This document shows, piece after piece, positions 9,892 through 62,234 of a stretch of DNA of 64,000 bases; the first letter of the stretch is position 1; the number at the start of each line of letters is the position of its first letter. Source of the DNA: a virus; IMG/VR virus record IMGVR_UViG_3300045988_147264, positions 32,001 to 96,000 of that record. One strand, written 5' to 3'. The notes beneath the pieces are model-generated. The model had not been told where the DNA came from and did not search any database. It was given only the letters and a program-made list of their open reading frames with translations. The translations under genes were made by a program, and so were the position numbers.

Positions 9892-9897
9892 ATATTA

Positions 9898-28290: not shown

Positions 28291-28362
28291 GTTGCGGGGG
28301 CAGGGATCGAACCTGCGGCCTCCAGATTATGAGCCTGGCGAGCTACCACTGCTCCACCCCAC
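28291..28362 (-). tRNA. tRNA-Met (anticodon CAT; initiator, elongator or Ile2 identity not resolved)
   Basis: Minus-strand cloverleaf folded by hand. Acceptor TGTGGGG/CCCCGCA, D-arm GAGC-AGTGGTA-GCTC, anticodon arm CCAGG-CTCATAA-TCTGG, T-arm GCAGG-TTCGATC-CCTGC. No encoded CCA. Confidence 0.8.
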
Positions 28363-28368
28363 AATATT

Positions 28369-28440
28369 GATGCCGGTACCGGGCTCGAACCGATATCCTT
28401 GGATTACAAAACCAAGATGCTACCCATTACACCAACCGGC
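28369..28440 (-). tRNA. tRNA-Thr (anticodon TGT)
   Basis: Acceptor TGCCGGT/ACCGGCA, D-arm with A14 G18 G19, anticodon stem TTGGT/TCCAA with T31-T39 mismatch, loop TTTGTAA, T-arm ATCGG-TTCGAGC-CCGGT. 6-nt spacer to tRNA-Met. Confidence 0.7.
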
Positions 28441-28459
28441 ACTATCTTAACTTGACAAT

Positions 28460-35422: not shown

Positions 35423-35494
35423 TGTTGTGTGATGTAATGGTTAGCATAGGAGATTTTGGTTCTTCTCGTAGAGGTTCGAGTCCTCTCACAACAA
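35423..35494 (+). tRNA. tRNA-Gln (anticodon TTG)
   Basis: Acceptor TGTTGTG/CACAACA, D-arm ATGT-AATGGTTA-GCAT, anticodon arm GGAGA-TTTTGGT-TCTTC, T-arm AGAGG-TTCGAGT-CCTCT. GTCGTGAGAT 19 nt upstream. Confidence 0.75.
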
Positions 35495-35553
35495 CAAATC
35501 AATCGGGAGGTTGGTTTCCGCTCAAACAATAATCCATGGATAAAATTGAGCGG

Positions 35554-35625
35554 GAGGCGATAGTTCAGATGGTTAGAATACTCGAGACGCGTTGGGGGAA
35601 GTTGGTTCGAGTCCAACTCGCCTCA
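35554..35625 (+). tRNA. tRNA-like gene or pseudo-tRNA with non-canonical anticodon arm
   Basis: Perfect acceptor GAGGCGA/TCGCCTC, D-arm GTTC-AGATGGTTA-GAAT, T-arm GTTGG-TTCGAGT-CCAAC. The 17-nt anticodon region CTCGAGACGCGTTGGGG has a G-G mismatch, no U33, and two adjacent 6-bp palindromes (CTCGAG, ACGCGT). Confidence 0.35.
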
Positions 35626-35630
35626 CAAAT

Positions 35631-35715
35631 GCCTTGGTGGTGAAATGGTAGACACGAGGGACTTAAAATCCCTTGGACAGAAATGTCCGTATGGGTTCGA
35701 TTCCCATCTGGGGCA
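35631..35715 (+). tRNA. tRNA-Leu (anticodon TAA), type II with long variable arm
   Basis: D-arm GTG-AAATGGTAGA-CAC, anticodon arm AGGGA-CTTAAAA-TCCCT, variable arm GGAC-AGAAAT-GTCC, T-arm ATGGG-TTCGATT-CCCAT. Acceptor GCCTTGG/CTGGGGC has three G-U pairs. Confidence 0.7.
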
Positions 35716-35750
35716 CAAAACAAATAACATAATGTTTTCTTCCAACATTT

Positions 35751-35871
35751 TAAGGTTAAGCAAGTCAAACCGGACGAGGTTAAAAGACTGGGCACGGAAA
35801 TGAGTTATGGTCAATACTCACATTAATCAAAATTGTATCGGGCTGTCGAGCCCTGCCATTGCTTAACCTTA
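35751..35871 (+). ncRNA. candidate structured ncRNA closed by a perfect 13-bp helix
   Basis: TAAGGTTAAGCAA (35751-35763) pairs with TTGCTTAACCTTA (35859-35871). Internal hairpins GGGCT-GTCG-AGCCC and GAGT...ACTC. Directly downstream of tRNA-Leu. Confidence 0.35.
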
Positions 35872-35926
35872 ATTTTTGTAGATTAGTACTTAAGAAGTTA
35901 TAAATTAATATCGTTATATAATTGCT

Positions 35927-36355
35927 ATGTGTTGGTTATCTAATAAATTAAAAATAAAGACCGCTAAAAAAGACATTGCTGTTTGGAAAGTTGTCCTTTT
36001 TGATAGAAGAAAAGGAATTTATGTATCTCCTATTATTAATTATCGTTATATTTTAGGCGTAATTTATAAAGTGGAAATGATTTTTAAAGTAAATAATTAT
36101 CCTTTAATAGGAGGGCATGATGGGTTTCATTCCTTTTCTAATAGAGTATATTACCGTTACTTTAATAACAAAATTCACATATTCAAAAAGCGCATTTTTG
36201 CAGAGGATGAACATGTATTTAACATTAGTGGTAATGACGGTTTTAACTTTGCAATAGCCAAAGGACGATTACCAAAAGGCACAAAATATGCAATAAATAA
36301 AAATGGTGAAATAATCTCATCTAGTATAGTTATAGATGATTTTATTGATTTGTAG
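35927..36355 (+). CDS. hypothetical protein encoded inside the tRNA cluster (AT-rich, Asn/Ile/Lys/Phe-rich)
   Basis: 142-aa ORF with noticeably lower GC than neighbouring genes. Ends 15 nt before tRNA-Ile. Confidence 0.4.
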   Translation: MCWLSNKLKIKTAKKDIAVWKVVLFDRRKGIYVSPIINYRYILGVIYKVEMIFKVNNYPLIGGHDGFHSFSNRVYYRYFNNKIHIFKKRIFAEDEHVFNISGNDGFNFAIAKGRLPKGTKYAINKNGEIISSSIVIDDFIDL

Positions 36356-36370
36356 CCACAACTTAAAATC

Positions 36371-36443
36371 AGGGCGTTAGTTCAGTGGTTAGAGCACGAA
36401 GCTTATACCTTCGGAGTCAGGGGTTCAAATCCCTTACGCCCTA
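36371..36443 (+). tRNA. tRNA-Ile (anticodon TAT, reads AUA)
   Basis: Acceptor AGGGCGT/ACGCCCT, D-arm GTTC-AGTGGTTA-GAGC, anticodon arm CGAAG-CTTATAC-CTTCG (perfect), T-arm AGGGG-TTCAAAT-CCCTT. Confidence 0.7.
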
Positions 36444-36579
36444 CTTATAGATTTTCTTTAGTTCCTGGATCATGGCCAGGCTGTGTTCTTCTGAAAAGAA
36501 ATTCAAAAAGCTTACAAAAATCAAATGTAGGTGGGAACATGGTAGATTAAGTGGAAACGATCTGGAGAAAATCTATTTT

Positions 36580-36776
36580 GATCTCGTAGCTCAGTTGGCA
36601 GAGCACAATATTTCAGACAATAGTCCAAACCACAAAAACTTAAAGATATAAGGTTCATCCCTTACACTTCTCAGAAATGATGGAGGATAGTTTAATGAAA
36701 ACATTAAGTTTGCCTATATAAAAGCAGGTGTGGCAGGTTAATATTGAAGTCGCGGGTTCGATTCCCGTCGGGATCA
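36580..36776 (+). tRNA. tRNA gene interrupted by about 124-nt insertion in the anticodon loop (Lys-TTT, opal-suppressor TCA or other depending on splice site)
   Basis: 5' part: acceptor GATCTCG, canonical D-arm GCTC-AGTTGGCA-GAGC, anticodon 5' stem CAATA then TTTCAGA... 3' part: ...AA-TATTG (perfect partner of CAATA), variable AAGTC, T-arm GCGGG-TTCGATT-CCCGT, acceptor CGGGATC. Total 197 nt. Confidence 0.55.
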
Positions 36777-37040
36777 CACAATATATAAAAATAGTGGATA
36801 GGCCTGGAAGTAGCCATTCCTTAAAGAGTAATTGACCACCCGATCTATTAACGCTCCTTGGTAAAAGAGGAAAACGCAACTTAGTGGGATAAATGGAATA
36901 AGAAATGTAATGCACAAATCTGTATAACAGAGAGCATAAGATTCAATCTTTTACAGAGAAAACTGAAAAGGTAGTTGTATAACATCTTTGTAAGAGATAA
37001 ATTTATTTTTGGTGTAATAACACGCTATTTTTATTATTTT

Positions 37041-37113
37041 CTTCATGTGGCGAAGTGGCTAACGCGGCGGTCTGCAAAACCGTTATTCGTGGGTTCGAGT
37101 CCCACCATGGAGT
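37041..37113 (+). tRNA. tRNA-Cys (anticodon GCA)
   Basis: Acceptor CTTCATG/CATGGAG, D-arm GCG-AAGTGGCTAA-CGC, anticodon arm GCGGT-CTGCAAA-ACCGT, T-arm GTGGG-TTCGAGT-CCCAC. Confidence 0.6.
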
Positions 37114-37141
37114 CTAAGTTAAACAAATAAAGACAAACATC

Positions 37142-40547: not shown

Positions 40548-41345
40548 TTGCACAAGTCACAAATCGCTGTGTTTGTGGCTTATGTTTTAACTAAAAAAGA
40601 CATGCAGTATTATTTAAAAATCGATACGTGCTTCAAGCGCGTACAAGACAAAGATAATCCTTTGTTTAACTGTATTATTCCTGACGAATTCACTCGGGAT
40701 GAATTCGCTGTTCTACAGGATTGCAGATGGTTGGCTACTGAAAAAGTTGACGGTACAAACATGTCATATCATTTCAGATATGAAGCCAATCCGACGGGTA
40801 ATGAACCACCGCTCGTGGATATTCTTGAGATTCATGGTAAAACTCCGGACTCTAAGATACCTATTCCTTTAATCGAGAAGATGCAGTCTCTTGTTTCCAA
40901 GGAAGACTTTCATAGGTTGTTCCTTAGAGAAGATAAGCCTAACTCGCTTGTCGATGTTTGGATTTTTGGTGAAGGTTATGGCAAAAAGATTCAAAAGTTC
41001 GGCAATGATTACATCAGTAATGGCGTGAATTTCATTGTCTTTGACATCAAAATCGGCAATATTTGGCTCACAAGAGGATCCGTAGAGGAGATTTGTCGGG
41101 AGTTACGCCTTGACATTGTGCCTATCATTGATTATATGACCTTAAATCAAGGTATAAGACTTGTTGAAAAGGGTTTTAAGTCAAGGGTTGCAGAGAATGA
41201 AAACCTTAATGCCGAGGGACTTGTGCTGTCAGCGCCATGTATGATGCTTGACAGGCTCGGCAACAGGATTGTCACCAAGATTAAGACATGTGACTTCAAT
41301 CAGTTAAAAGCAAAACTCAAAAGTAATGGAACAGTTCTCGGTTAA
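40548..41345 (+). CDS. ATP-dependent RNA (or polynucleotide) ligase, nucleotidyltransferase superfamily
   Basis: Motif I ATEKVDGTNMSY (KxDG), motif III NFIVFDIKIG, motif IV AEGLVLSAP, motif V RIVTKIKT. 265 aa, the size of phage Rnl-type ligases. Confidence 0.6.
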   Translation: MHKSQIAVFVAYVLTKKDMQYYLKIDTCFKRVQDKDNPLFNCIIPDEFTRDEFAVLQDCRWLATEKVDGTNMSYHFRYEANPTGNEPPLVDILEIHGKTPDSKIPIPLIEKMQSLVSKEDFHRLFLREDKPNSLVDVWIFGEGYGKKIQKFGNDYISNGVNFIVFDIKIGNIWLTRGSVEEICRELRLDIVPIIDYMTLNQGIRLVEKGFKSRVAENENLNAEGLVLSAPCMMLDRLGNRIVTKIKTCDFNQLKAKLKSNGTVLG

Positions 41346-41372: not shown

Positions 41373-41783
41373 GTGCAGGCTAATATGATTCTCACTGGAA
41401 TATCACATATGTATTGGATAACAAGGTTATCATTAATACATGACGCGTTTTTATTCGTTTTTATCATTGCTGCAACTGTGGCGTCCCTTACCGGAATAAT
41501 TGTTTTTTTATCGACTGGTGATGATAAAGATGACTATGCTTGTTTTAAGCGCGTAAAAAAGTGCTTTATTACAGCAATTGTAGCTGTTGTTCTTAGTGGT
41601 GTAGGATTGGTATTTGTTCCAAAAACAAATGAGGCTCTGCTCATTTATGGCGTAGGTACAACAATTGATTACGTTGACAACAACGAAACCATTAAACAAC
41701 TCCCGGATAAGGCTGTACAGGCACTTGACAAGTACCTAGACTTGCTTAACAAAGACAGTGAAAATAAAAATTCTCATAACTAA
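41373..41783 (+). CDS. membrane protein
   Basis: 136 aa. Hydrophobic helices LFVFIIAATVASLTGIIVFL and AIVAVVLSGVGLVFV. Confidence 0.5.
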   Translation: MQANMILTGISHMYWITRLSLIHDAFLFVFIIAATVASLTGIIVFLSTGDDKDDYACFKRVKKCFITAIVAVVLSGVGLVFVPKTNEALLIYGVGTTIDYVDNNETIKQLPDKAVQALDKYLDLLNKDSENKNSHN

Positions 41784-41784
41784 A

Positions 41785-42606
41785 ATGAATTTAATCAAAT
41801 CATCTGTTGAAGAATGGGTGCAAGAAAACTCGCTTCAAGGGGCTTACAAACAAATCGAGAAAGCCGCAAGAGTCTGCTATAAGTCAGATCTTGGAAAGAA
41901 TCCCGCTGAATTTGTTGACAAGCTCGTTTCTAATGGCCATATGGCTATGCTCGAACACGGCATTCTATATTTACGTATCGAGTTTAACCATTTACTCGAC
42001 CATACGGTACATAAAAGTGTCAATAAGTTGTTATCATCTCCTTACGTCAAATTCAAAACATTTGGCGTCAACGGAAAGCCAATAGAATGGCACATAACAG
42101 CCAACATGCGAGTGTTCTATGAACTTAATGTTCTTGATCTGCTACAATATGCTGTTACTCCTGACGACTCGTATGAGAAGGTCAGGTGTTTCCACTTTGT
42201 GCTGAACAGGGCGATAGCAAATGAGTTCGTTCGTCACAGAAAATTCAGTTTCGCCCAGGAGTCTACCAGATTCTGCAATTACAGCAAGGACAAGTTTGAC
42301 AATCAGGTAACTTTTGTTATATCTGATGAGGTTGAAAACTCTTCCTCAAAAGACCTGTTCAAACGAGCCATGGCTGATGCTGAAAGGCATTATCTCACGG
42401 CATTGAAAGATGGTCTTAAACCAGAAGAAGCGAGAGACATGTTGCCATTATCAACAAAGACAGAGCTTGTAATGACAGGATTTTTGTCAGATTGGCAGCA
42501 TTTTATCGATTTGCGTTCCATTGGCAGCACAGGAAGGCCGCATCCGGAAGCGAAAAAGCTGGCAGACCAAGTAAAAGAAATACTTTATGGATCTACGAAC
42601 ACTTAA
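41785..42606 (+). CDS. thyX: flavin-dependent thymidylate synthase ThyX
   Basis: ThyX signature FVRHRKFSFAQESTRF (RHRx7S). Start placed at ATG 41785 (MNLIKSS...) just after the upstream stop. The longer track ORF begins at 41758. Confidence 0.7.
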   Translation: MNLIKSSVEEWVQENSLQGAYKQIEKAARVCYKSDLGKNPAEFVDKLVSNGHMAMLEHGILYLRIEFNHLLDHTVHKSVNKLLSSPYVKFKTFGVNGKPIEWHITANMRVFYELNVLDLLQYAVTPDDSYEKVRCFHFVLNRAIANEFVRHRKFSFAQESTRFCNYSKDKFDNQVTFVISDEVENSSSKDLFKRAMADAERHYLTALKDGLKPEEARDMLPLSTKTELVMTGFLSDWQHFIDLRSIGSTGRPHPEAKKLADQVKEILYGSTNT

Positions 42607-42835
42607 GAAATACTTTGCTCGATGTAGAATCTCATATACTGTAGTTTGGACTCCTAATCAAGAAATGTATGTTTCATTACCAACGTGTTCTGACAGGAAG
42701 CCAATCTATCGATTAATTGTTATTGATAACGGGCTGGTTGTTATCGTTACTAACAAGATTGTCGTTTATAATCAAATAGAAGAAATCAAACAAATAAAGT
42801 TTTATGATTCTAAAGGTAAAGAAATTGCACAATGA
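42587..42835 (+). CDS. hypothetical small protein
   Basis: 82-aa ORF overlapping thyX end and dut start. Confidence 0.4.
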   Translation: MDLRTLKKYFARCRISYTVVWTPNQEMYVSLPTCSDRKPIYRLIVIDNGLVVIVTNKIVVYNQIEEIKQIKFYDSKGKEIAQ

Positions 42836-43229
42836 TGCTCAGTTGCCGTTCTATGCCACAAAAGGTTCAGTTGGAATGGATCTTACATGCGTGAGTGCCG
42901 AGTGGGATCGTGAACATAACGAGATTAAGTATGGCACTGGTCTTGCATTCGAGATTCCTCAAGGATATGGTGGATTCCTGTTTCCAAGAAGCTCTGTATG
43001 CAAGAAAACTCTTGACATGGCTAACTGCGTCGGCGTGATTGACTCTGATTACAGGGGAGAGGTTTCTGCTGTGTTCAGAATCACAAATCCAGCTGATGAA
43101 AAGGTATATGCTATTGGTGAAAGATGTTGCCAGATTGTAATCTTGCCGGTAGCTATATGCGAAATTGTTGAAGGCGATCTTAGCGAAACAGCAAGAGGCG
43201 CTCGTGGATATGGTTCAACAGGTAAATAA
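42804..43229 (+). CDS. dut: dUTP pyrophosphatase (dUTPase)
   Basis: Motifs GSVGMDL, FPRSS, VGVIDSDYRGE, ARGARGYGSTGK. Confidence 0.8.
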   Translation: MILKVKKLHNDAQLPFYATKGSVGMDLTCVSAEWDREHNEIKYGTGLAFEIPQGYGGFLFPRSSVCKKTLDMANCVGVIDSDYRGEVSAVFRITNPADEKVYAIGERCCQIVILPVAICEIVEGDLSETARGARGYGSTGK

Positions 43230-43952: not shown

Positions 43953-44282
43953 ATGTTAACATTCAAAACAAATGTTTTAGGCGGACCCCCCTTCTATATG
44001 GGGACTGTAACTTATAATAAGACTCCAACAGATTCACACAGGAGCGCTTATTATGGCCATTTAAGCTCATCTTCAAGACCGATCGATCTTGACAACAACA
44101 GAAGAAGTGTATGTGTTCATTACTCGCCGGTAAAAGACAATACCAAGCCGTTCGATTTGCGACAAGTAGCCGTCGCGATGAGGGCTATTATGAAAACAAT
44201 TAATAATTGTGAAAAAGATAGAATTAGATCCCGCGGACGTCGCATTATTCTCGGCGACGCAAATGAACCTTTTATTATCTGA
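43953..44282 (+). CDS. hypothetical protein
   Basis: 109-aa ORF. Confidence 0.45.
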   Translation: MLTFKTNVLGGPPFYMGTVTYNKTPTDSHRSAYYGHLSSSSRPIDLDNNRRSVCVHYSPVKDNTKPFDLRQVAVAMRAIMKTINNCEKDRIRSRGRRIILGDANEPFII

Positions 44283-44826
44283 TGGACATCAGTTCATTCA
44301 ATATTATTCACAAAGAAGGGTATGTTATCCAGATTATGGTTCCGGAACAGATCTTGTTGACAAATTAAATCTATATGATGGTATTCAAAATGTAGAATCA
44401 ATCGCGGATTTCTGCTTTGATGGATGTCCTCCTATCGAGATGCCAATCAAGATAGATGTGATTTGTGACGATGTGTTATATATTGAAAGAAATATTGAAG
44501 ATTGCCCTGAAAATCTGAAACAAAAAATCTTGGATACAATCATGATAGAAGCGGTTAACTTACTTACAATGTATAATGATAGCCTTAGATTCAAGTTGTC
44601 ACGAAAACAAGGTAAGACAAACTTTTATATGCGTGAGGCATCTAAGATCAAAGTTTTCACAGGTAGCGGCTTGTTTTCAATACGAACAAAAAAGCCTATG
44701 GCTATTCGTGCATTCATGAAGACAAAACTGAAATCAATCTTTGATGCCAGAGCTGCCATGTGTTGGGATTCAAGATATCTCGCGAAAACAAACAGATTCT
44801 ATAAAAAAATGATTGAATATGTTTAA
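44209..44826 (+). CDS. hypothetical protein (start uncertain, possibly ATG 44263)
   Basis: 205-aa ORF overlapping the previous gene by 74 nt. An in-frame ATG at 44263 gives a shorter overlap. Confidence 0.45.
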   Translation: MKKIELDPADVALFSATQMNLLLSDGHQFIQYYSQRRVCYPDYGSGTDLVDKLNLYDGIQNVESIADFCFDGCPPIEMPIKIDVICDDVLYIERNIEDCPENLKQKILDTIMIEAVNLLTMYNDSLRFKLSRKQGKTNFYMREASKIKVFTGSGLFSIRTKKPMAIRAFMKTKLKSIFDARAAMCWDSRYLAKTNRFYKKMIEYV

Positions 44827-49179: not shown

Positions 49180-50130
49180 ATGATAGATAATTTAAATTTT
49201 CTTTTAATGGCATGGGGTGCCAAGGATACATCAGTTCCATCTGTAGAGTTTCCAAAATATGTTGGTATCGCTCCGATCAAGATTCTCGCTGTCAATCCTA
49301 CCGAAAAGGAAAGATGTGCGATTTTTGGTACAGAGCCGACCGGCAAGGAACCTGAGTATGTCACAGAAGTTGACTACAACGGAAAAAAGATTCGCAGAGT
49401 GAGGATTTGTTTTGTGATCAAGACAGTCAAGGAAGTCTGTGGCGTTGATCTCACGACTACAGTGAATTTCTTTGTGTCAAACAAGAAGTTTATGTCAAAA
49501 AACGGTGAGAAACTTATGGTCATGGACAATTATGGACGCGATTGCTGGGTAACAAAGGAGCAGTTTGCAAACAAGACCGTTCCTGAATTCAGAGTTGGCA
49601 GGTTTGGCAAGGATTATCACGCCGCGTTTGAAGGAGAACGTGAGCTCGTTGGATTCATGAGGGCTTATCTCAATGTAGATGATCCGGAGGTTTATGATAA
49701 CAGTACCGGTCTATTTGTTGAAAGAGCAGATCTTACATCTGCCGAAGGAACCCTTGAAAACATCGCCAATTACTTCAATGGTGATTTTTCCGAGTTGAAG
49801 GGACTTCTCACGATCTTTCCTGACAATGCGTTCAAGGCTTTATTCGGCGTCAGACATACTGATGACAATAAAGATTATCAGGATGTGTTCACCAAACTGT
49901 TTGTTAAGAACAATGTAACTCATGCAAGAACAGAAAAGCTCTTCCAGAAGGCGCTTGATGATATGTTAGCATATTCTCCTGGTCACACAGACTATGAGAT
50001 CTGTCCAATCAAGGAAGCTCCGAAACCGCAACCAGCCGACCTTTCGGCTCCAAAGACGACAGCCCAACCAGCCGCTGTGGTAGATGACCTTCCATTCGGT
50101 GATGACAATAACCCGTGGGGTAACCTGTAA
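49180..50130 (+). CDS. putative single-stranded DNA-binding protein (SSB-type acidic C-terminal tip)
   Basis: 316 aa ending ...PAAVVDDLPFGDDNNPWGNL, similar to the DDDIPF tail of SSBs. Between recombination ATPase and primase. Confidence 0.35.
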   Translation: MIDNLNFLLMAWGAKDTSVPSVEFPKYVGIAPIKILAVNPTEKERCAIFGTEPTGKEPEYVTEVDYNGKKIRRVRICFVIKTVKEVCGVDLTTTVNFFVSNKKFMSKNGEKLMVMDNYGRDCWVTKEQFANKTVPEFRVGRFGKDYHAAFEGERELVGFMRAYLNVDDPEVYDNSTGLFVERADLTSAEGTLENIANYFNGDFSELKGLLTIFPDNAFKALFGVRHTDDNKDYQDVFTKLFVKNNVTHARTEKLFQKALDDMLAYSPGHTDYEICPIKEAPKPQPADLSAPKTTAQPAAVVDDLPFGDDNNPWGNL

Positions 50131-51119
50131 TGTTCGCAGGCAAATCCAGTGTATGCTTGGATGATATTCGTGCCAGGGTCTCTGAAGAGGCTCTGGCATT
50201 TTATTATCTTGAGGCGGCTGTTCCTTCGCTTATAAACTCTCCTTTCAGGAGGGATGACAAGCCATCGTTTAGCCTGTATTTCAATAGCGAAGGAAATGTG
50301 CTATACAAGGATTTCGCTACCGATGAAAAAGGAACCATATATCACGCGTTAATGAGACTGTTTAACATGTCTTTCAATGATATGCTTCAGACAGTTTATA
50401 ATGATGTCGTGAATGGTAAAATAAGCTCAAATGGAACACAGTTTGGCGTGAAGAGGAGTTACTCCTCACACGAACGCACAAATGACATCAAGATTGATAT
50501 ATGCATCCGCAAATGGATGCCATGGGATGTCGAATATTGGTCGTCGTTTGGCATAAATACAGACTGGCTCGATTATGCCGATGTGTATCCCATAACACAT
50601 TATTTCCTTACAAAGAACAACAAAACATCTGTAATACGTGCGGAAAAATACGCTTACGCCTATGTTGAGCGTAAAGAAGGCAAAATCACTGTCAAGGTGT
50701 ATCAACCATATTGTCCAATGTATAAGTGGCCGGCGAACAACAATGACGGCACTACGATCGCATTGTGGTCGAAAATACCTCTACATGGAGACGTTGTTTG
50801 CGTGTGTTCTTCAGTAAAGGATGCTTTGTGTTTATGGAGCAATACCGGCGTTCCTGCCGTTGCTTTGCAAGGTGAGGGATATCCAATGTCTAATCATGCT
50901 GTAAACGACCTTAAAAGCCGTTTTAAGCGCGTTTTGATTATGTTGGATAATGATATACCAGGCCTTGAGTATTCAACAAAACTAGCCAGGGCTACGGGTT
51001 TTACTAACGTTATTCTTCCATTCTTCAGTGGTGGAAAGGATATATCAGACTACTATAAAGCTATAAATAACAGACAAAGGTTTATTAAAGATATATTAAA
51101 TGTCATACATGGATTATGA
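50130..51119 (+). CDS. DnaG-type DNA primase (zinc-binding-like N-terminus plus TOPRIM)
   Basis: SPFRRDDKPSFSLYF resembles the primase zinc-ribbon motif CPFHxEKTPSF (Cys/His replaced). TOPRIM-like VLIMLDNDIPG and acidic cluster. Confidence 0.55.
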   Translation: MFAGKSSVCLDDIRARVSEEALAFYYLEAAVPSLINSPFRRDDKPSFSLYFNSEGNVLYKDFATDEKGTIYHALMRLFNMSFNDMLQTVYNDVVNGKISSNGTQFGVKRSYSSHERTNDIKIDICIRKWMPWDVEYWSSFGINTDWLDYADVYPITHYFLTKNNKTSVIRAEKYAYAYVERKEGKITVKVYQPYCPMYKWPANNNDGTTIALWSKIPLHGDVVCVCSSVKDALCLWSNTGVPAVALQGEGYPMSNHAVNDLKSRFKRVLIMLDNDIPGLEYSTKLARATGFTNVILPFFSGGKDISDYYKAINNRQRFIKDILNVIHGL

Positions 51120-51987
51120 TTCGGCTAAACGAATTGCGTGTTATATTGAATGCATAAGCGAATTTGAGGCGTTTGATCGCGATAAAAATATTGTTCTTAA
51201 AAGAGCGGTCAGAGCGTGTTTCTCTTCGTTACGAAAGCGGGAAGATATAACTCGCATAAAGATTTATATGTACGCATATGAGCCGAAACTTTCGATCGAA
51301 GATAATGTTTTCTATTATAATAAACATAAAGGTATAAAGAGATATTATCCAGTTACCGATTTATCAATTACGATGATGAGGAAGATCTTAGATCTTGCAA
51401 AGAGTATTGTTGACTTTAAGTCCTCAATTTCTATTGAGCATATCATCGACGAAAACGGCAACGATAGGTTTCAATATTGCACAGATCTTCTGTTTCCAAG
51501 CGATACAAATACCATTCAAAAACTGTTCGTGTGTACCGTTGTAAGATGGTTCTATGAACAACAGAACCGTTATATCGCATTAAAAGCTTATGAATTGTAT
51601 AACACCGAGAAGTATCATCGCTTTGGTTTTTTCAATTTATACTGTTTCGTAAAGGAACAATGTTACGATAATGTGAATGATTTTGGACACGATCTTCTTG
51701 ATGGTAAAAGTCTTGTTCGTAGAACATTTTTCGTTCCAGAAAAACTCAAATCGTTATACGAAATGAGTTCCTCGTTACGCAATGGTAAAAGTATCACATT
51801 ACTTTGGATGGGGTGTGGCTATTCTGGAATACCAGTAGAAAACACTTCAATGCAAGTTACAGAAATTTACTGCAAAGGCGGTAAACAAGGATTTGATCTT
51901 CAAGAGAGGCTTGAAAGCAATATTGATTTCATTATTTCAAAAATAAAAGGAAATGAGACATTTGACTGTGAGAACGAGGAACAGTAA
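51100..51987 (+). CDS. hypothetical protein
   Basis: 295-aa ORF overlapping primase end (20 nt) and ATP-grasp start (35 nt). Confidence 0.5.
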   Translation: MSYMDYDSAKRIACYIECISEFEAFDRDKNIVLKRAVRACFSSLRKREDITRIKIYMYAYEPKLSIEDNVFYYNKHKGIKRYYPVTDLSITMMRKILDLAKSIVDFKSSISIEHIIDENGNDRFQYCTDLLFPSDTNTIQKLFVCTVVRWFYEQQNRYIALKAYELYNTEKYHRFGFFNLYCFVKEQCYDNVNDFGHDLLDGKSLVRRTFFVPEKLKSLYEMSSSLRNGKSITLLWMGCGYSGIPVENTSMQVTEIYCKGGKQGFDLQERLESNIDFIISKIKGNETFDCENEEQ

Positions 51988-52753
51988 ATGTTATGCGTTG
52001 CGTGACATTGAAGTTCCCCAAAAAACGATCCTCAGGCTTGGTAGCGTCACGCCTACTGCGGAAATAACACGTAAGACTGACATCATTGAGATAAATCCAG
52101 CGGAAGCATGCGCCATATCGTCAGATAAGCGCGCCACAAGAAGGATTCTTCTCGAAGCAGGTGTGTCGATTGCAGACGAATGCGTGATTCCAGAAGATGT
52201 TCGTGACAATCACGACAACATTATTGCCATAATCCTTAAGTATATGCAAGATAATGATTGTAACATCATTGCAAAGCGTTATAATTCCTCAAAAGGGAAG
52301 GGGTTACTGCTGCTGGACAGTCCTGATGCAGTTGAGTCTTTTGTGAATTTCGCTAAAATTGAGAATTGGGTGCTTGAGCGCTATTACACGTATTCCCGTG
52401 AATACCGTATTCATGTAACCAAGGATGGTTGTTTTCTCGCAGATAGAAAGATGCTTATTAACGGAGCCGATGAAAGATGGCATCGTCACGAGACAAATTC
52501 TGTCTGGATTAACGAAAATAACGAATTATTTAACAAACCGATTAACTGGGAAGATATAGTTGCCGATTGTGTAAAGGCAATGCATGCAATCGGTTTGGAT
52601 ATCTGTTGCTTTGATGTCAAGGTGCAGAATGACAAACATGAGAATCCTAAATGGATAATCATGGAGTCAAATAGCGCACCTGGACTCAATGACTCTTCTA
52701 TTGAATTATATAGAGAACAAATTAAAAAAATTATCAATGAAAGAACGGTATAA
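51953..52753 (+). CDS. ATP-grasp family ligase
   Basis: ATP-grasp hallmarks: IIAKRYNSSKGKGLLLL (K/G-rich loop), LERYYTYSREYRIHV, WIIMESNSAPGL (E-x-N-x-x-P-G). Confidence 0.65.
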   Translation: MRHLTVRTRNSKCYALRDIEVPQKTILRLGSVTPTAEITRKTDIIEINPAEACAISSDKRATRRILLEAGVSIADECVIPEDVRDNHDNIIAIILKYMQDNDCNIIAKRYNSSKGKGLLLLDSPDAVESFVNFAKIENWVLERYYTYSREYRIHVTKDGCFLADRKMLINGADERWHRHETNSVWINENNELFNKPINWEDIVADCVKAMHAIGLDICCFDVKVQNDKHENPKWIIMESNSAPGLNDSSIELYREQIKKIINERTV

Positions 52754-53849
52754 CAACCTTCTGAAAATGTATCCACGGCTTAAGCCGCGTATGTTATTTG
52801 GTCAGTCAAGAACAGTTTACAAATCAACTACCATAAGACTTGACGGTGAGGAAAAAGGAGCCATATGTAAAGACTCTAAATTCGGCGAAAAATGTTGTTT
52901 TGGCAACACGACTAAACAAAGATTTATTTCCGCAAAAATCTCTTATGATATCTTCTTTACGGACGATATTAGGTTTGTCGAACGCTTGATGCCAGTAACG
53001 CTGTTCACAAAGGACGAGATTGAATCATTCTTGAATTATCTTAAAAACGTGGTCGATTTTGAGTTTACTGTAGAATATGGCCAAGTAAAGAATTTTGATC
53101 TTTTCAAAAATGATGGTAATTTCGTTCATTATTTAGAAAATAGTTGTAAAGAAACCAAAATAGATTATCGTGAATTAACGGGTTTTCTCCTGCACGTTAC
53201 AATCGATGCCATAAGGCCTATTCATGCGTTCATACTTCAATGGATAAGGCAAATATATGACGGACGAGCTCAATTTTATACCGGCATAGTATATGAACTG
53301 AAGAAACGAACCGAGTTCAAGAATCTGTCTCTGTTTACCATAATGAGTCTTGTATATAGCTCATTACGGTTTAGTGAGGGCTCGACCGACATGTGTGTAT
53401 TTCCTACGGATATGTATGAAGGAAGGTTGTCTTTCCCAAAAATGAAAGACAGGTTCAGCGATATGAATAAAATGTTTAAAAGATTCGTCAATACAAGCAT
53501 TTATTCAAGCAAACGGTACGATCATGAAAAAGAAGTTCCAGCAGATCTCAAAGAGTATACTTATGGAGATTGTCTTGAATTCATAGACATGGTTTGGTGC
53601 AATCTTTGCAGAGACTTGTTCATTGAGAATCTGGAAGTGAAAATCAACGACTCTGATAGAATTTCAGTTTTTGGCGATTATCGTGAAATGAGTGATTTCA
53701 TTAATCGTTATGACGAAATTGTGGAATTGTTCGCCAGAATAGCGTCTTTAATTTTGTCCGGAAAGTGGAAACTTGACAAAGAGAGTCTCGATTGGAGAAT
53801 CGACACAAAGCGAATCATCAATGACACCTATAAATACTTGAGTGAATGA
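52737..53849 (+). CDS. hypothetical protein inside the ligase operon (start chosen at ATG 52737)
   Basis: The track ORF starts at 52689 inside the ATP-grasp gene. ATG 52737 (MKERYNNLLK...) gives a 17-nt overlap. 370 aa, no recognised motif. Confidence 0.45.
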   Translation: MKERYNNLLKMYPRLKPRMLFGQSRTVYKSTTIRLDGEEKGAICKDSKFGEKCCFGNTTKQRFISAKISYDIFFTDDIRFVERLMPVTLFTKDEIESFLNYLKNVVDFEFTVEYGQVKNFDLFKNDGNFVHYLENSCKETKIDYRELTGFLLHVTIDAIRPIHAFILQWIRQIYDGRAQFYTGIVYELKKRTEFKNLSLFTIMSLVYSSLRFSEGSTDMCVFPTDMYEGRLSFPKMKDRFSDMNKMFKRFVNTSIYSSKRYDHEKEVPADLKEYTYGDCLEFIDMVWCNLCRDLFIENLEVKINDSDRISVFGDYREMSDFINRYDEIVELFARIASLILSGKWKLDKESLDWRIDTKRIINDTYKYLSE

Positions 53850-54499
53850 TGAACAAAACAAGAAAAGTATACGTTGTTGGAATGGGCACCGGATATGCTC
53901 ATCCCATAAAGAACAAACAGTTGGTCAATACCATTCAAGAAGCGGACATTGTCCTTTTCACAGGTGGCGCTGACGTAGATCCATCAATCTATGGTAAGAA
54001 AGCCATAGAAGCAACATGGCCCAACCTTCGTAGAGATATCTATGAAAAGGAGTTCTATGAAGCCATGAGGCCAGACCAGTTGGCAATCGGTATTTGTCGC
54101 GGATTGCAGTTATTTTGTGCTCTTAATGGAGGCAATCTTGTGCAGGATACCACAAATCACGCTGGACCAGACCATACAGTGAAGATTCTCGAAACCGGAG
54201 ATACATTCATGGTTTCATCGCTGCATCATCAAATGGTCTATCCTTTCGATATGTCAAATAGAGACTATACCATTCTTGGCATATCAGAACACAACAGAAG
54301 TCTTTATTACGCTGGTGACGGTATTGATCCTGAGGTAATAAAGGACTTTGGTGAACCTGAAATCGTATTGTTTCACAAAGAGGGAAGGCCAGTCAGCTTC
54401 GGCATTCAGGGACATCCGGAAATGATGTCTCCAAACAGTCCTTTTGTGCAGTACGAAAACGAAATGATTGAAAAGTTGTTAAAACAAATCAAAGGCTAA
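53846..54499 (+). CDS. class I glutamine amidotransferase-like protein / peptidase C26-type thiol hydrolase
   Basis: Catalytic Cys in GICRGLQLF, His-Glu in GIQGHPE. 217 aa. ATGA overlap with the upstream gene. Confidence 0.65.
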   Translation: MMNKTRKVYVVGMGTGYAHPIKNKQLVNTIQEADIVLFTGGADVDPSIYGKKAIEATWPNLRRDIYEKEFYEAMRPDQLAIGICRGLQLFCALNGGNLVQDTTNHAGPDHTVKILETGDTFMVSSLHHQMVYPFDMSNRDYTILGISEHNRSLYYAGDGIDPEVIKDFGEPEIVLFHKEGRPVSFGIQGHPEMMSPNSPFVQYENEMIEKLLKQIKG

Positions 54500-54502
54500 C
54501 AA

Positions 54503-55372
54503 ATGATCAAAGAATTTACAGTCGGGGCAGACCCCGAGATGTTTATCATTAATGAGACAACCGGAGAGGTGGTCTCCTCGATTGGATTAATCCCTGGCGA
54601 GAAAGGTGACGCCTATCGCGCCGAAGACATGCCAGAGGGTTACGGCATTGAAACAGACAACATTCTTGCTGAATTCAATATCCCTCCTTGCAAAACCAAG
54701 GATGAGTTCATTAATGCCATGAACTACATGAAGGATTATATTCGTAAGTTCGTGAAGAATGTCAATCCTGAGTTGAATATCAAGTGCTCTGCCAGCGAAA
54801 TGGTCGGAAGCGATCAATTAAGGTCTCCTGAAGCCAAGATGTTCGGATGCTCTGTCGATTTCAATGCTTATACAGAAGACTCCAATCCTAAACCTTGCGG
54901 AGAAAGCACCAACCTCAGATCTGCCGGATGCCATATTCATCTTGGCTATGATCCGAAGAGTTACGAGTCAAGCATCGAATTGTTGAAACTCATGGATGTG
55001 TTTGTTGGCTTGCCATCAATACTTATCGACAAGGATGATCGTCGCCGCAGTCTTTACGGCAAAGCCGGTTGTTTCAGGCTTACGCCGTATGGCATTGAGT
55101 ATAGAGTGTTGTCGGCAAAGATGTATGACACCAACGATCTCATGTCGCTAGTCTGGGACGGTGTCATGCTTGCGATTGCTGCCTATAATAACAATTTCGA
55201 GTATAACGCCGGAGCAGAGATGGTTATTCAGGCCATCAATGAAAGCGATGAGAAACTCGCAAATGCTGTGCTTGAAGATGTGTTTGGAAGCATTTTCAAA
55301 AATTTCCCTGCAATGGCTGACCAAGCAAAATCGTTTATTACTGAATTAGGAACCATAAAGAATAAATTGTAA
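54503..55372 (+). CDS. glutamine-synthetase-fold amidoligase (Amidoligase_2-like), paralog 1
   Basis: Motifs YGIETDNILAEF, SAGCHIHLGYD, YGIEYRVLSA. Paralogous to 56774-58093. Confidence 0.55.
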   Translation: MIKEFTVGADPEMFIINETTGEVVSSIGLIPGEKGDAYRAEDMPEGYGIETDNILAEFNIPPCKTKDEFINAMNYMKDYIRKFVKNVNPELNIKCSASEMVGSDQLRSPEAKMFGCSVDFNAYTEDSNPKPCGESTNLRSAGCHIHLGYDPKSYESSIELLKLMDVFVGLPSILIDKDDRRRSLYGKAGCFRLTPYGIEYRVLSAKMYDTNDLMSLVWDGVMLAIAAYNNNFEYNAGAEMVIQAINESDEKLANAVLEDVFGSIFKNFPAMADQAKSFITELGTIKNKL

Positions 55373-56796
55373 TGTGTGGAATCTTTGGCTTTATAGGCCA
55401 ACGGCAGAAACCGTTTGACAAAAGAGCATTCGTTACCTTGGGTGTCGCAAATGACGCCCGAGGCGGCGATTCTTGCGGCATATTCATTGACGGACAGTAC
55501 GAATATGGTGTCGATAAGCTTAAGTTGTTCGGCGATTTCTGGTATCAATCAAAACTTATCAAAGAGACAAAAAGCGCTACAATCGCTCTTGGGCATGACA
55601 GAAAGGCTTCTGTCGGTGGAGTGAAGGCTGAGTTGGCTCAACCTGTCATCATTAATGGAGAAAACGGACCGGAGTTTGTCTTTATCCATAATGGTACAAT
55701 GGTGAATCATACCGCTCTCGCAAAGAAATATCTGCCAGATATGGATACCGCTCATATGAGCGACTCTCAAATCATGGCGCATATTTTCTATCGTCACGGA
55801 TTTGATTCCATTGAGGAATATATCGGAGCGGCTGTATTTGTCGCTGTCGATTATCGTTCCGGAAAACCTGTGTCGTATTTCTTCAAGGGAGAATCAAAAG
55901 AGTATAGTTATTCGACAAAGGCCACTGAAGAAAGACCATTGTTCTTCACGATGTCTCACCAGCAGGTCTATTTTTCTTCAATCTATTCTACGCTTGCTAC
56001 TCTATTTCCTGATAAGGCATTTGCCAAAAACATTTATTTTCCTAATGGGAATATACTTTATACAGTAAATCCTGATGGAGATTTTGCTGTTGTCAAGGAA
56101 TACGACAGGAGCAAGTGCTATCAGAAAGAATCGTATACGAGCGCCGCTTATAACTATTATGGATATAATCGAAATGTCGATTTTGATGACGAGGAGAGTT
56201 ATTACGATTACTACAGAGGCAAAAACAATAATAACACCCCAACAAACCTGTTGACGTCTGGTAACAATGGTAAGCTTACGTTTGATTCCAAGACGATGCT
56301 GTATTACGAAGGAGATGATGTCGCGCATGGGTTGTATTATGTTGTTGACAACGGCTCAATCGTGCCAGCAAGAACAGCCAATGCGTTTGAGGCGTTCTTC
56401 TTCAATGGCGTTCTCATTAAGAATGCAGATGCGTTATTCTTCTTGATAGAATTTATGGTGACAATGCAGTTGACTGAAGATAAGGTTTTCGAGAAATATG
56501 ACTCCCTTGTGAGGTACTTAAGTCCATTGCCGGCGGTTAGCCTTGGTGATGACGGTACTCCCACCTTTCATAAGTATGTCACGCCTACCGAATGTGAGCT
56601 GTTTAGCGGTACAATGTTTCCACTGTTTGCCGGTAGGTCAATTATGTGTCAAGCCGGTGCTGTATCGTCTTCAACGCTTATCGCCGATTCAGTAGGAGAG
56701 AACATCTATAAGAAATTTAGCGAAGAGCCTATCAATATGGAATTACTTGATGACTTTTTAGATTCAACCGTAAATGAAACTGAAAATAATAAATAA
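55372..56796 (+). CDS. class II (Ntn) glutamine amidotransferase fused to an uncharacterised 250-aa C-terminal domain
   Basis: N-terminus MCGIFGFIG with catalytic Cys2 after Met removal, plus FVFIHNGTMVNH. ATG overlaps the stop of the preceding gene. Confidence 0.6.
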   Translation: MCGIFGFIGQRQKPFDKRAFVTLGVANDARGGDSCGIFIDGQYEYGVDKLKLFGDFWYQSKLIKETKSATIALGHDRKASVGGVKAELAQPVIINGENGPEFVFIHNGTMVNHTALAKKYLPDMDTAHMSDSQIMAHIFYRHGFDSIEEYIGAAVFVAVDYRSGKPVSYFFKGESKEYSYSTKATEERPLFFTMSHQQVYFSSIYSTLATLFPDKAFAKNIYFPNGNILYTVNPDGDFAVVKEYDRSKCYQKESYTSAAYNYYGYNRNVDFDDEESYYDYYRGKNNNNTPTNLLTSGNNGKLTFDSKTMLYYEGDDVAHGLYYVVDNGSIVPARTANAFEAFFFNGVLIKNADALFFLIEFMVTMQLTEDKVFEKYDSLVRYLSPLPAVSLGDDGTPTFHKYVTPTECELFSGTMFPLFAGRSIMCQAGAVSSSTLIADSVGENIYKKFSEEPINMELLDDFLDSTVNETENNK

Positions 56797-58093
56797 TCTT
56801 TCCGAAGATTCAAGACAAGATCGTGATGGATATGTCAGAGGAATCTTGCAGGCCACAAAGAACTCCATTGTTGTAGGATGGGTTCCACTGTCTCCTCTTA
56901 ATGTGCTTATCTGTACGAAGCTGAGAATTCCTGGACTTTATGAATATGTCAATATGTCACGTGTTTATGGTCATTCATATGAAGAGCTTAAAGACGTATT
57001 GCATTTTGACAATTCGATAGGGCTTTACAGGTTCATATTTGAGTCTACTCCAGAAACAATTGCCATGGCTACTGCCGTCATGGGTAATGGTCAGTATCCA
57101 TATCTCATTGAAAGAGAGTATGAGGCATTGAATAATCTAGGTAGGTTCAATGATTCTCACATTGTCGAACAGCACAAGACATATACTCTTGGCGACAAGC
57201 TTAAATACACGTTTGGCATTGAGTTTGAGACATCCTGCGGTTACGTTCCTTGCGATAGGACATTCATAGATGGCCTTATTCCGTTAAGAGATGGAAGTAT
57301 TTCTGGAATAGAATACTCAACAATTGTTCTTAAAGGAAATGACGGATTGAATACACTTAAACAGTGTATGGATGACCTGACCAAATACACTATGTTTAAC
57401 AAGGAGTGCGCGTTACACATTCACCTTGGTGGGTTTCCGGTAAAACAGGAATATATCGCAGCATTGGCCGGCGTACAGAAGAAACTTGAGGATTCAAACT
57501 ATCTGTTTACTCTGCCTGAATGGTCATTTAACACAGAGCTTTATAAGTCTAACGGCAAAAGCTACTGCAAGAAGACACCGATATACGAAAGTTTCGATGA
57601 GTTATTCCACGGCGTGACTGGTAAAGATTTCAAGGGTTCATTGTCAGAACCACATCCAAGGGATCCCGAAAGAACTTCCAAGTGGAATATATCTTCCAGA
57701 TATTATGGACTCAATCTTGTCAATATGGTCTGCTATAAGACTCCAAAGACTGTTGAGTTCAGATTCCTCAGACCAACAGACAACTTCAAAAAGGTGTATA
57801 TTTGGCTTGCGATATTTAACGCGCAGCTGGAGTTCACCAAAATGCTTGTTGAAAAATACAAGAGAGCCATATCAGAGGATGCAAATGCTTCGTTCATGTT
57901 AGATTATATAAATGATCTTAATTTTGACCTGACAACCGTTTTGTCAAGTGTATATGAAGGAGACTTTCTTGATTGGCTTATTGACGGTCTGAAACTCATG
58001 AAGCGAGTTATTAGTGTTCAAAATGGAGCAAATGACCACTACGGATCACTTGTAAGTGTTGAAAACAAGATTCTTGGCACTGATGTACTTTAG
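56774..58093 (+). CDS. glutamine-synthetase-fold amidoligase (Amidoligase_2-like), paralog 2
   Basis: Motifs FGIEFETSCGY, CALHIHLGG, TVEFRFLRPT. 23-nt overlap with the upstream gene. Confidence 0.55.
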   Translation: MKLKIINNLSEDSRQDRDGYVRGILQATKNSIVVGWVPLSPLNVLICTKLRIPGLYEYVNMSRVYGHSYEELKDVLHFDNSIGLYRFIFESTPETIAMATAVMGNGQYPYLIEREYEALNNLGRFNDSHIVEQHKTYTLGDKLKYTFGIEFETSCGYVPCDRTFIDGLIPLRDGSISGIEYSTIVLKGNDGLNTLKQCMDDLTKYTMFNKECALHIHLGGFPVKQEYIAALAGVQKKLEDSNYLFTLPEWSFNTELYKSNGKSYCKKTPIYESFDELFHGVTGKDFKGSLSEPHPRDPERTSKWNISSRYYGLNLVNMVCYKTPKTVEFRFLRPTDNFKKVYIWLAIFNAQLEFTKMLVEKYKRAISEDANASFMLDYINDLNFDLTTVLSSVYEGDFLDWLIDGLKLMKRVISVQNGANDHYGSLVSVENKILGTDVL

Positions 58094-61386: not shown

Positions 61387-61642
61387 TGACCTTTCTTGTT
61401 ATTCAAGAAACGATAAGGCATATACACCTTCGTATTCAATAGGAAAAGACAAGGATACGCGTCATTATGAACTCGACAATCACGATGTCGGTGTAGCATA
61501 TTATGACGGAGAATTGTATTTTCTCAGGGCATACAACAGGAGATGGGTCATCGAATCCACGATCAAACAGGAACAGGCTATTCATATGTCACACGTTATG
61601 TCAAACATGTGTCAATGGTTAAAAACTAATGGACTACACTAA
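61337..61642 (+). CDS. hypothetical small protein
   Basis: 101-aa ORF. Alternative in-frame start at 61364. Confidence 0.4.
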   Translation: MTEGIRRVLMKKRVIIDDLSCYSRNDKAYTPSYSIGKDKDTRHYELDNHDVGVAYYDGELYFLRAYNRRWVIESTIKQEQAIHMSHVMSNMCQWLKTNGLH

Positions 61643-62234
61643 ATCTTCTTATGTACAGGAGGCTACAAGGCTCCGTGATCGCATGGATGGAAAAGATCTA
61701 ACAAAGATATTTTTCACATCTGATACGCATTTTGGTCACGGAAACATAATAAACTTCTGTAAAAGACCATATGAGAACGTTTCAAAAATGGATAACGCTC
61801 TCATAGAAAACTGGAATGCCACTGTCGGACCAGCCGATGATATATATCATCTTGGTGACTTCTGTTTTAACGGAATACAACGATGGTGGGAACTGATTGG
61901 AGCCCTTAACGGGCGGATACATCTTATACTTGGCAATCATGATTTGAAATATATCGATAAAGGTATATTATATATGTTCTGCGAGGTTGAGCACCAAAAA
62001 GTGTTATACCTTAACGACAGAATGATATATCTTAATCACGTACCTTTCTTGAGTTATGGAGGTGATGAGCGTGGGAACATACAGTTGTACGGTCACGTTC
62101 ACTCTGGACCAGACTCTACAAGTCGTGATTTGCCTAGACTCGAAATGTGTTACAAAACTCAATATGATGTCGGTGTTGACAATAACGGATACAAACCGAT
62201 AAGCTTACACGACATCTTGTGTAAAATCGAATAA
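61629..62234 (+). CDS. calcineurin-like metallophosphoesterase
   Basis: Motifs IFFTSDTHFGH, YHLGDF, ILGNHD, GHVH. Confidence 0.65.
   Translation: MDYTKSSYVQEATRLRDRMDGKDLTKIFFTSDTHFGHGNIINFCKRPYENVSKMDNALIENWNATVGPADDIYHLGDFCFNGIQRWWELIGALNGRIHLILGNHDLKYIDKGILYMFCEVEHQKVLYLNDRMIYLNHVPFLSYGGDERGNIQLYGHVHSGPDSTSRDLPRLEMCYKTQYDVGVDNNGYKPISLHDILCKIE

Follow-up and report, generated by a model that had tools for sequence, protein, structure and literature searches.

A seven-gene ligase and amidotransferase cassette in a crAss-like phage, a member of a widespread phage operon with a putative role in gamma-glutamyl-type amide bond formation and cleavage

The 64,000-nucleotide (nt) stretch analyzed here (the window; positions 32,001 to 96,000 of IMG/VR record IMGVR_UViG_3300045988_147264) comes from a crAss-like phage, its portal protein being 66-68% identical to the portals of cr128_1, IAS virus and Kehishuvirus. 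At 51100-58093 it carries a cassette of seven co-oriented, tightly packed open reading frames (ORFs) which, judged by the families of the encoded proteins, belongs to a phage operon already on record, that of the phiEco32/LUZ24/RIO-1/PA11 type. Its genes, with lengths in amino acids (aa), are as follows.

51100-51987, plus strand: ORF2-family paralogue A, 295 aa, with overlaps of 20 nt (upstream primase gene) and 35 nt (ORF1)
51953-52753, plus strand: ORF1, putative RimK/cyanophycin-synthetase-like ATP-grasp carboxylate-amine ligase, 266 aa
52737-53849, plus strand: ORF2, that is, ORF2-family paralogue B, 370 aa (386 aa from an alternative ATG at 52689)
53846-54499, plus strand: ORF3, class-I glutamine amidotransferase (GATase I) or peptidase C26-type thiol enzyme, 217 aa
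54503-55372, plus strand: ORF4, phiEco32-like COOH-NH2 ligase type 2, 289 aa
55372-56796, plus strand: ORF5, class-II, N-terminal nucleophile (Ntn) glutamine amidotransferase-type protein (GATase II) with a linker and a C-terminal domain
56774-58093, plus strand: ORF6, Amidoligase_2 protein, 439 aa, the ligase core being preceded by ~145 N-terminal residues without an assignment

The first-pass annotation of this locus, made from the letters alone, had described six co-oriented genes overlapping by 1-23 nt. All six are real and lie on the plus strand, but the seventh gene at 51100-51987 had been missed, and overlap is not universal, since ORF3 and ORF4 are separated by a 3-nt gap. ORF2 and ORF3 overlap by 4 nt (ATGA), ORF4 and ORF5 by 1 nt, and ORF5 and ORF6 by 23 nt, and ORF1 runs 17 nt into ORF2 when the latter starts at 52737, or 65 nt when its earliest ATG (52689) is taken; public gene calls adopt the 370-aa form. 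Every motif quoted in that annotation is present in the translations, and its family assignments for ORF1 and ORF3-ORF6 agree with Pfam, PHROG and PDB profile searches. The cassette thus comprises three ATP-dependent enzymes of carboxylate-amine ligase type (ATP-grasp, COOH-NH2 ligase type 2 and Amidoligase_2) and two nucleophile enzymes recognizing glutamine or gamma-glutamyl groups, one with a Cys-His-Glu triad of the C26 type and the other with the N-terminal Cys of the Ntn type. Their catalytic residues are kept across 42-80 distinct members per family, and every active site in the cassette is intact. None of the seven proteins contains a hydrophobic segment, and from their sequences all look soluble; none matched a PADLOC anti-phage defense model at E <= 0.01.

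ORF1 matched PHROG 2599 (5.9e-22), with Pfam matches to RimK and ATPgrasp_ST under the gathering score and weak NCBIfam matches to cyanophycin synthetase and rimK_fam. Compared with PDB, a profile built from 24 ATP-grasp homologues met RimK (4iwx, 7.5e-10), alpha-L-glutamate ligases (8e-11), cyanophycin synthetase (2e-12) and PurD-type enzymes, with E-values from 1e-9 to 4e-13 overall, and also met D-Ala-D-Ala ligases weakly, at about 1e-6. Residues K59, E150, R152, H154, K166, D221, E238 and N240 are invariant in alignments of 24-42 homologues, and the family hidden Markov model (HMM) recovers the ATP-grasp proteins of phages tf, Ty and phi14:2.

ORF4 scored 39.2 bits against PF14395 (“Phage phiEco32-like COOH.NH2 ligase-type 2”; cut-off 25) and 4.4e-63 against PHROG 3815, and shares 33-36% identity and an invariant set of motifs with its tf and SU7 counterparts. 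In a 25-sequence alignment D10-P-E12, D52, N53, E57, H144, H146, R181, E199 and R201 are invariant; in a set of 76 sequences D10-P-E12, D52 and E57 remain so, and the other residues are kept in 93-94%. ORF6 scored 25.9 bits against Amidoligase_2 (PF12224; cut-off 22) over residues 176-345 and 6.7e-13 against PHROG 2443, with E150, E152, D173, E180, H215, H217, E328 and R330 conserved in 26-76 homologues; its N-terminal 170 aa have no Pfam match. The Amidoligase_2 family HMM also recovers the amidoligases tf_21 and SU7 gp83. ORF4 and ORF6 had been called paralogues, which could not be upheld: hhalign gave a probability of 1.6% and aligned only the HxH motif.

ORF3 matched Pfam Peptidase_C26 at 2.4e-15 and GATase at 1.6e-6, and resembles Lin1909 (PDB 3fij). 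Its triad, formed by C84 (in GICRG), H190 and E192 (in GHPE), is kept in 98% of 68 homologues; the best NCBIfam match, gamma-glutamyl-CDP-amidate hydrolase, reached 4.5e-5, far under cut-off. ORF5 matched Pfam GATase_6 (1.2e-12); its Ntn domain spans residues 1-255, and a disordered linker rich in Tyr and Asn (256-299) joins this to a C-terminal domain (300-474) that is itself conserved. It has all the hallmarks of a class-II amidotransferase, namely the Ntn fold, C2 directly after the initiator Met, the N107-G108 oxyanion pair, and R77 and D131 for the glutamyl group, and its glutamine-binding residues are invariant. The C-terminal domain, listed at the outset as unknown, indeed has no Pfam or PDB match, fits no solved fold, and contains no polar residue invariant among homologues. 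The linker, encoded at 56137-56268 of the window, is a Tyr/Asn/Asp-rich low-complexity stretch (YNYYGYNRNVDFDDEESYYDYYRGKNNNN...) predicted to be disordered, and is gap-rich and poorly conserved in the homologue alignment. A routine identity of ORF5 as PurF, AsnB or GlmS, which would have turned the cassette into an ordinary biosynthetic unit, was excluded: NCBIfam models of these enzymes gave 32-44 bits against cut-offs of 267-418, about a tenth, over residues 1-205/269 only, and no PRTase, PP-loop synthetase or SIS domain is present.

The 370-aa ORF2 was correctly listed as lacking a known family. Neither it nor its relatives have a Pfam, NCBIfam or PADLOC match or a sequence match in PDB, and the structural model of ORF2 matched no known fold. 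The 295-aa protein at 51100-51987, which has no Pfam, PHROG, NCBIfam or PADLOC match, is a divergent paralogue: a family HMM built without it recovers it at E=6e-13, in an alignment spanning the CF and RxxYE motifs, and a Foldseek search with the ORF2 model retrieved its orthologue in CrAss-like virus ctelJ1 (E 1.9e-6, probability 1.0). Against a viral structure library the same model matched both corresponding hypothetical proteins of cr108_1, each with probability 1.0. Among 42 representatives the mean identity is only 15%; Cys54, which lies in a loop modeled as flexible, is invariant, and F55, R171 and E175 are nearly so. An exhaustive search of 1.84 billion proteins yielded just 34 representatives, each of single-domain size, and a profile search of a 5.8-billion-protein database brought up little beyond close relatives, none of the matches being fused to a known domain. 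The family is, however, fused to GATase I in two independent contigs (L007 4843-6351, identical to L060 6843-8351, and L061 6800-8335), in proteins of 502-511 aa with an N-terminal GATase domain retaining intact CRG and HPE motifs and a C-terminal ORF2-family domain; these adjoin separate copies of both GATase I and ORF2-family genes. Since the two are fused independently, a direct functional link between the ORF2 family and GATase I is indicated. The family is a fast-evolving, cassette-specific one and a constant neighbor of the class-I GATase.

We surveyed the cassette in 80 viral contigs found by ligase alignment and seven earlier loci, which make 87, or 88 sequences with the window; clustering at 80% ligase identity gave 40 lineages, and their ORFs were classed by iterative HMM searches. 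All 40 lineages have the COOH-NH2 ligase and 38 have GATase II; Amidoligase_2 occurs in 37, as does the pair of GATase I and the ORF2 family. The order of the five-gene core (ORF2-GATase I-COOH-NH2 ligase-GATase II-Amidoligase_2) is nearly constant, being found in about 37 of the 40. In 25 of the lineages an ATP-grasp gene is located no more than 9 kb away. Gamma-glutamyl cyclotransferase (AIG2/GGCT, here GGCT) is found in 7 of 40 and is thus an accessory rather than a universal component. The contigs measure 42-350 kb, jumbo-phage contigs among them, and the hosts of carriers span E. coli, Pseudomonas, cyanobacteria, marine bacteria and gut Bacteroidota. Among deposited phages, 314 genomes, for the most part those of Pseudomonas, Escherichia, Vibrio and Aeromonas phages, encode a homologue of the COOH-NH2 ligase, although megablast of the cassette against deposited phages gave no match, so that its relatives are visible at the protein level only. 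In a scan of bacterial genomes, only 15 contigs from metagenome-assembled genomes matched. The enzyme combination had been regarded as unusually elaborate, with an implication of rarity; instead, the same set forms a recognized and conserved phage operon.

Two other features of the surveyed loci should be mentioned. In five contigs of 117-218 kb (L081-L085) the COOH-NH2 ligase gene, at ~9001-10441, is split into two ORFs, and in L081 the halves are parted by a LAGLIDADG homing endonuclease gene (in the remaining four contigs, the ORFs between them were scanned in part); genes for HNH endonucleases are found inside or beside the cassette in UFV-P2 and SU7. Contigs of the jumbo type (L011, L014, L016-L020, L022, L026-L029, L031, L033-L037, L043, L044, L047, L054, L065, L071, L076, L081 and L082) carry, immediately before the five-gene core, a gene for a protein of 353 aa whose tail is rich in Met and Gly; the gene takes the position held by ATP-grasp in crAss-like phages (for example, L035 6510-7571). 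The protein has no Pfam match, and hmmsearch and hhalign refuted its identity as a hidden ATP-grasp enzyme.

On balance, we consider it somewhat probable that the cassette encodes one cytoplasmic pathway which builds, and later cuts, gamma-glutamyl-type amide or peptide bonds on a small substrate. Its genes would be expressed alongside the replication genes. The ligases would activate carboxylates as acyl-phosphates and couple them to amines, so that a substrate of low molecular weight would acquire one or more amide bonds of gamma-glutamyl or peptide type, after which the two GATase-type enzymes (and GGCT in other phages) would cut the gamma-glutamyl amide, releasing or unmasking the product; the ORF2-family protein would be the physical partner of GATase I, probably providing substrate binding or specificity. 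The logic may be that of ligation, elaboration and deprotection, by analogy with PuuA/PuuD and with BtrJ/BtrG of butirosin synthesis, where a gamma-glutamyl group is attached in amide linkage by an ATP-dependent ligase and later taken off by GGCT or a hydrolase of the C26 type. That the genes act as a unit is argued by the conservation of the core order, by the recurrence of the same enzyme set in tf/LUZ24, SU7, Ty, cr108_1 and phi14:2 and by the GATase I-ORF2 fusions, and a cytoplasmic location by the lack of hydrophobic segments in the seven proteins. Release, as opposed to ammonia donation, is favored because ORF3 best fits the gamma-glutamyl hydrolase family, because GGCT recurs in the cassette, phi14:2 having GGCT where GATase I and ORF2 are absent, and because the Ntn domain of ORF5 would be consistent with hydrolysis of the EgtC kind. 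As for the target, we favor a small molecule, either a metabolite or a precursor, over DNA. The literature reads the operon likewise, in terms of gamma-glutamyl amides or unusual peptide bonds.

Several points weigh against such a pathway. Glutaminase-type residues would suit an ammonia-donor role equally well, and a GGCT HMM run against every frame of the 64-kb window found no match. Co-transcription is deduced from gene packing, with promoter and terminator scans at chance level only; the role of ORF2, whose fold is unassigned, is based on adjacency and one type of fusion; and the glutamine synthetase-like fold of ORF4 and ORF6 rests on Pfam family membership: both families keep sets of conserved Glu, His and Arg residues, but PDB contains no detectable sequence relative of either. 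We found in the literature no experimental function for any member, and papers of 2023, 2024 and 2025 still go no further than citing the prediction, made in 2009, that the cell wall is changed or superinfection excluded.

The main rival, which we hold to be a tentative possibility, is glutamine-dependent amidation. Here the GATases would be true glutaminases feeding ammonia to the acyl-phosphates of neighboring ligases (GATase II with Amidoligase_2, and GATase I with ORF2 and/or the COOH-NH2 ligase), so that carboxamides would be formed, and ATP-grasp would add one peptide bond. Counterparts are familiar from MurT/GatD, CobB/CobQ and the NAGGN dipeptide-amide pathway, and ORF1 and ORF5 weakly match the ATP-grasp and amidotransferase of the NAGGN “trio”. 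In every architecture surveyed, GATase II and Amidoligase_2 are neighbors, in either order; the glutamine-binding residues of GATase II are invariant, and its C-terminal domain has no invariant polar residue, which would place the synthase site in another protein. The GATase I-ORF2 fusion, too, looks like a glutaminase-synthase fusion. However, ORF3 fits peptidase C26 far better than the generic GATase model, and the recurring GGCT, an enzyme acting only on gamma-glutamyl amines and amino acids, has no role in amidation; the ammonia tunnel and the GATase-ligase complex that amidation calls for are hypothetical.

The RimK-like profile of ORF1 and the properties of the ORF2 family bear on another alternative, that of protein tagging, which we judge improbable. 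A protein of the host or the phage would receive glutamate or a short peptide tag from the ligases, to be trimmed by the GATases, or, in a variant, an ORF2-family protein would itself serve as acceptor or carrier through its invariant Cys loop. RimK, which glutamylates ribosomal protein S6, is among the nearest solved relatives of the ATP-grasp family, and the ORF2 family, a constant and often duplicated component, diverges rapidly and bears a single invariant Cys in the loop modeled as flexible. Peptide tagging has been proposed by the Iyer/Aravind school for related systems. The ORF2-family proteins nevertheless lack a conserved C-terminal acceptor motif, no ubiquitin-like, Pup-like or LysW-like small protein is encoded in the cassette, and nothing points to a host target.

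A bolder reading, to which we would give quite low credence, is that the ORF2-family proteins might be a new functional class, either as acceptor or synthase partner for the class-I amidotransferase or as a carrier holding the product on its Cys loop, so that the virus would bring, in the cassette, its own self-contained assembly line for a new metabolite or tag with an amide link. The thought comes from the invariant Cys in its flexible loop, the RxxYE motif, the constant GATase I neighborhood, the fusions and the lack of detectable relatives or a known fold. If so, the assembly line might be used in host takeover, superinfection exclusion or counter-defense, for example by neutralizing a host amine such as a polyamine.

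The genomic setting is relevant to the two remaining alternatives. In the window, structural genes occupy the minus strand and replication genes the plus strand. As first described, the cassette lies among replication genes: helicase, Sak4, a gene for a 316-aa protein and primase precede it, and resolvase, PD-(D/E)XK exonuclease and endonuclease VII follow, which places it in the early/replication module next to primase and helicase, as expected for this operon. Other features of the module are listed below.

40548-41345, plus strand: RNA ligase (PF09414)
41758-42606, plus strand: thymidylate synthase ThyX
42804-43229, plus strand: dUTPase
49180-50130, plus strand: 316-aa protein, directly upstream of primase, without a PHROG or Pfam match
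61629-62234, plus strand: calcineurin-like metallophosphoesterase

The gene for the 316-aa protein precedes primase in 18 of the 40 surveyed lineages, namely those with crAss-like synteny. The C-terminus of the protein is of low complexity, ending near ...VVDDLPFGDDNNPWGNL, and in our view recalls the acidic tip of bacterial SSB, so that it may presumably be a phage single-strand-binding protein. On either side of the point where minus-strand structural genes give way to plus-strand replication genes lie seven tRNA genes (Met, Thr, Gln, Ala, Leu, Ile, Cys), at 28291-28441 (minus) and 35423-37114 (plus), and the GC skew reverses sign at ~34 kb. A weak match to the Condensation domain of non-ribosomal peptide synthetases at 44209-44826 on the plus strand (E 7e-4, under cut-off) lacks the HHxxxDG motif and is probably spurious. 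In marine OM43 phages, the replication module is likewise reported to hold a metallophosphoesterase gene plus amidoligase and GATase genes (PMC10580990).

Nucleotide or DNA modification, in which the cassette would put an amino-acid-type side chain on a base or nucleotide precursor and thereby evade restriction, draws on this setting. The cassette always lies among replication and nucleotide genes, which include primase, ThyX and dUTPase in the window and, in other loci, ribonucleotide reductase (RNR), NrdD, a GMP-reductase-like gene and uracil-DNA glycosylase (UDG); the very weak best NCBIfam match of ORF3 would also fit. Yet the thymidylate synthase of the window is ThyX and not a ThyA-type hydroxymethylase; no base-exchange enzyme, DNA glycosyltransferase or 5-hydroxymethyldeoxyuridine kinase was seen among the window ORFs scanned, a subset of the total; and no nucleotide-binding domain was detected in ORF2 or in the two unassigned domains (the C-terminal one of ORF5 and the N-terminal one of ORF6). 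DNA modification is therefore unlikely here, and we assign this alternative the smallest chance of those considered.

Remodeling of peptidoglycan stem-peptide precursors, whose structure includes a gamma-D-Glu amide bond, so as to alter the cell surface and exclude superinfecting phages, appears doubtful. Soluble enzymes could work on cytoplasmic UDP-MurNAc-peptides, the ATP-grasp profile weakly meets D-Ala-D-Ala ligases, and three papers cite Iyer et al. (2009) for a peptidoglycan reading (PMC10580990, PMC11318856, PMC5498523). But that reading is a prediction; the cassette contains no Mur-ligase domain, signal peptide or membrane segment and lies in the replication module, away from lysis and lysogeny genes; and the envelopes of carrier hosts are very diverse, predicted viruses of murein-less archaea being included. 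A cytoplasmic pathway that ligates and then releases a gamma-glutamyl-type amide on a small substrate remains our preferred interpretation.

The operon is among the most widespread phage gene sets without a known product, and the window shows that it is common in crAss-like gut phages. In directed evolution of a LUZ24-like phage, missense mutations arose in the amidoligase and Ntn amidotransferase genes in both the 15-round and the 30-round versions (PMC11450229); together with the targeting of the cassette by homing endonucleases, these mutations suggest that the cassette matters for infection. As it is already known, and annotated at the same locus in cr108_1 and phi14:2, the window adds no new principle. 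What is new is modest: the seventh gene, the ORF2 family as the constant partner of GATase I, and the five-gene core order. The core and its partner protein sharpen the questions that can be put to cultured relatives such as phi14:2, LUZ24, phiEco32 and PA11/TC6.

Comparison with PuuA/PuuD and BtrJ/BtrG is limited to logic and claims no membership: ORF3 matches Peptidase_C26 and GGCT occurs in relatives of the cassette, whereas the cassette itself has no Gln-synt_C-type PuuA, carrier protein or pyridoxal phosphate enzyme. The closest known systems are phage operons. Those of the phiEco32/LUZ24/RIO-1 type, a computational prediction since 2009 (Iyer et al. 2009; Hardies et al. 2013; Duhaime et al. 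2017), likewise contain COOH-NH2 ligase type 2, Amidoligase_2, an Ntn GATase with a long C-terminal extension and a RimK-like ATP-grasp enzyme, on one strand of the early/replication module and by primase or helicase (tf, LUZ24-like phages, SU7). The match of ORF4 to the phiEco32-like Pfam family substantiates the link drawn in the first-pass annotation to the predictions of Iyer, Aravind and colleagues, in which no product was defined. Relative to this type, the window adds the C26-type GATase I and two ORF2-family proteins, and is without GGCT. In tf and SU7, a protein of ~200 aa between the ligases and two upstream hypothetical proteins are not detectably GATase I or ORF2-family members; none of tf_17, tf_18, tf_20, SU7 gp84, gp87, gp88 and TY_19 could be detected as a divergent member of either. 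The cultured PA11-like Pseudomonas phages (Paundecimvirus: PA11, TC6, O4, vB_PaeM_Ty) resemble the window in having both GATase classes, both ligases and ATP-grasp, enzymes already listed in the TC6 paper. In Ty we detected GATase I (TY_20, 3e-57), GATase II (TY_22, 9e-23), the COOH-NH2 ligase, the amidoligase and ATP-grasp, although the gene order differs from that of the window and the 310-aa TY_19, upstream of GATase I, is missed by the ORF2-family HMM. The cultured Cellulophaga phage phi14:2 has the same locus, from primase to UDG, with the order GGCT-ATP-grasp-ligase-GATase II-ligase and without GATase I and ORF2. In the uncultured crAss-like cr108_1, the same locus lies between primase and the UDG/resolvase/exonuclease genes and is annotated as ATP-grasp, amidotransferase, COOH-NH2 ligase and glutamine amidotransferase; its proteins, like those of phi14:2, are 35-50% identical to those of the window, and it has the same gene order as the window and two ORF2-family genes.

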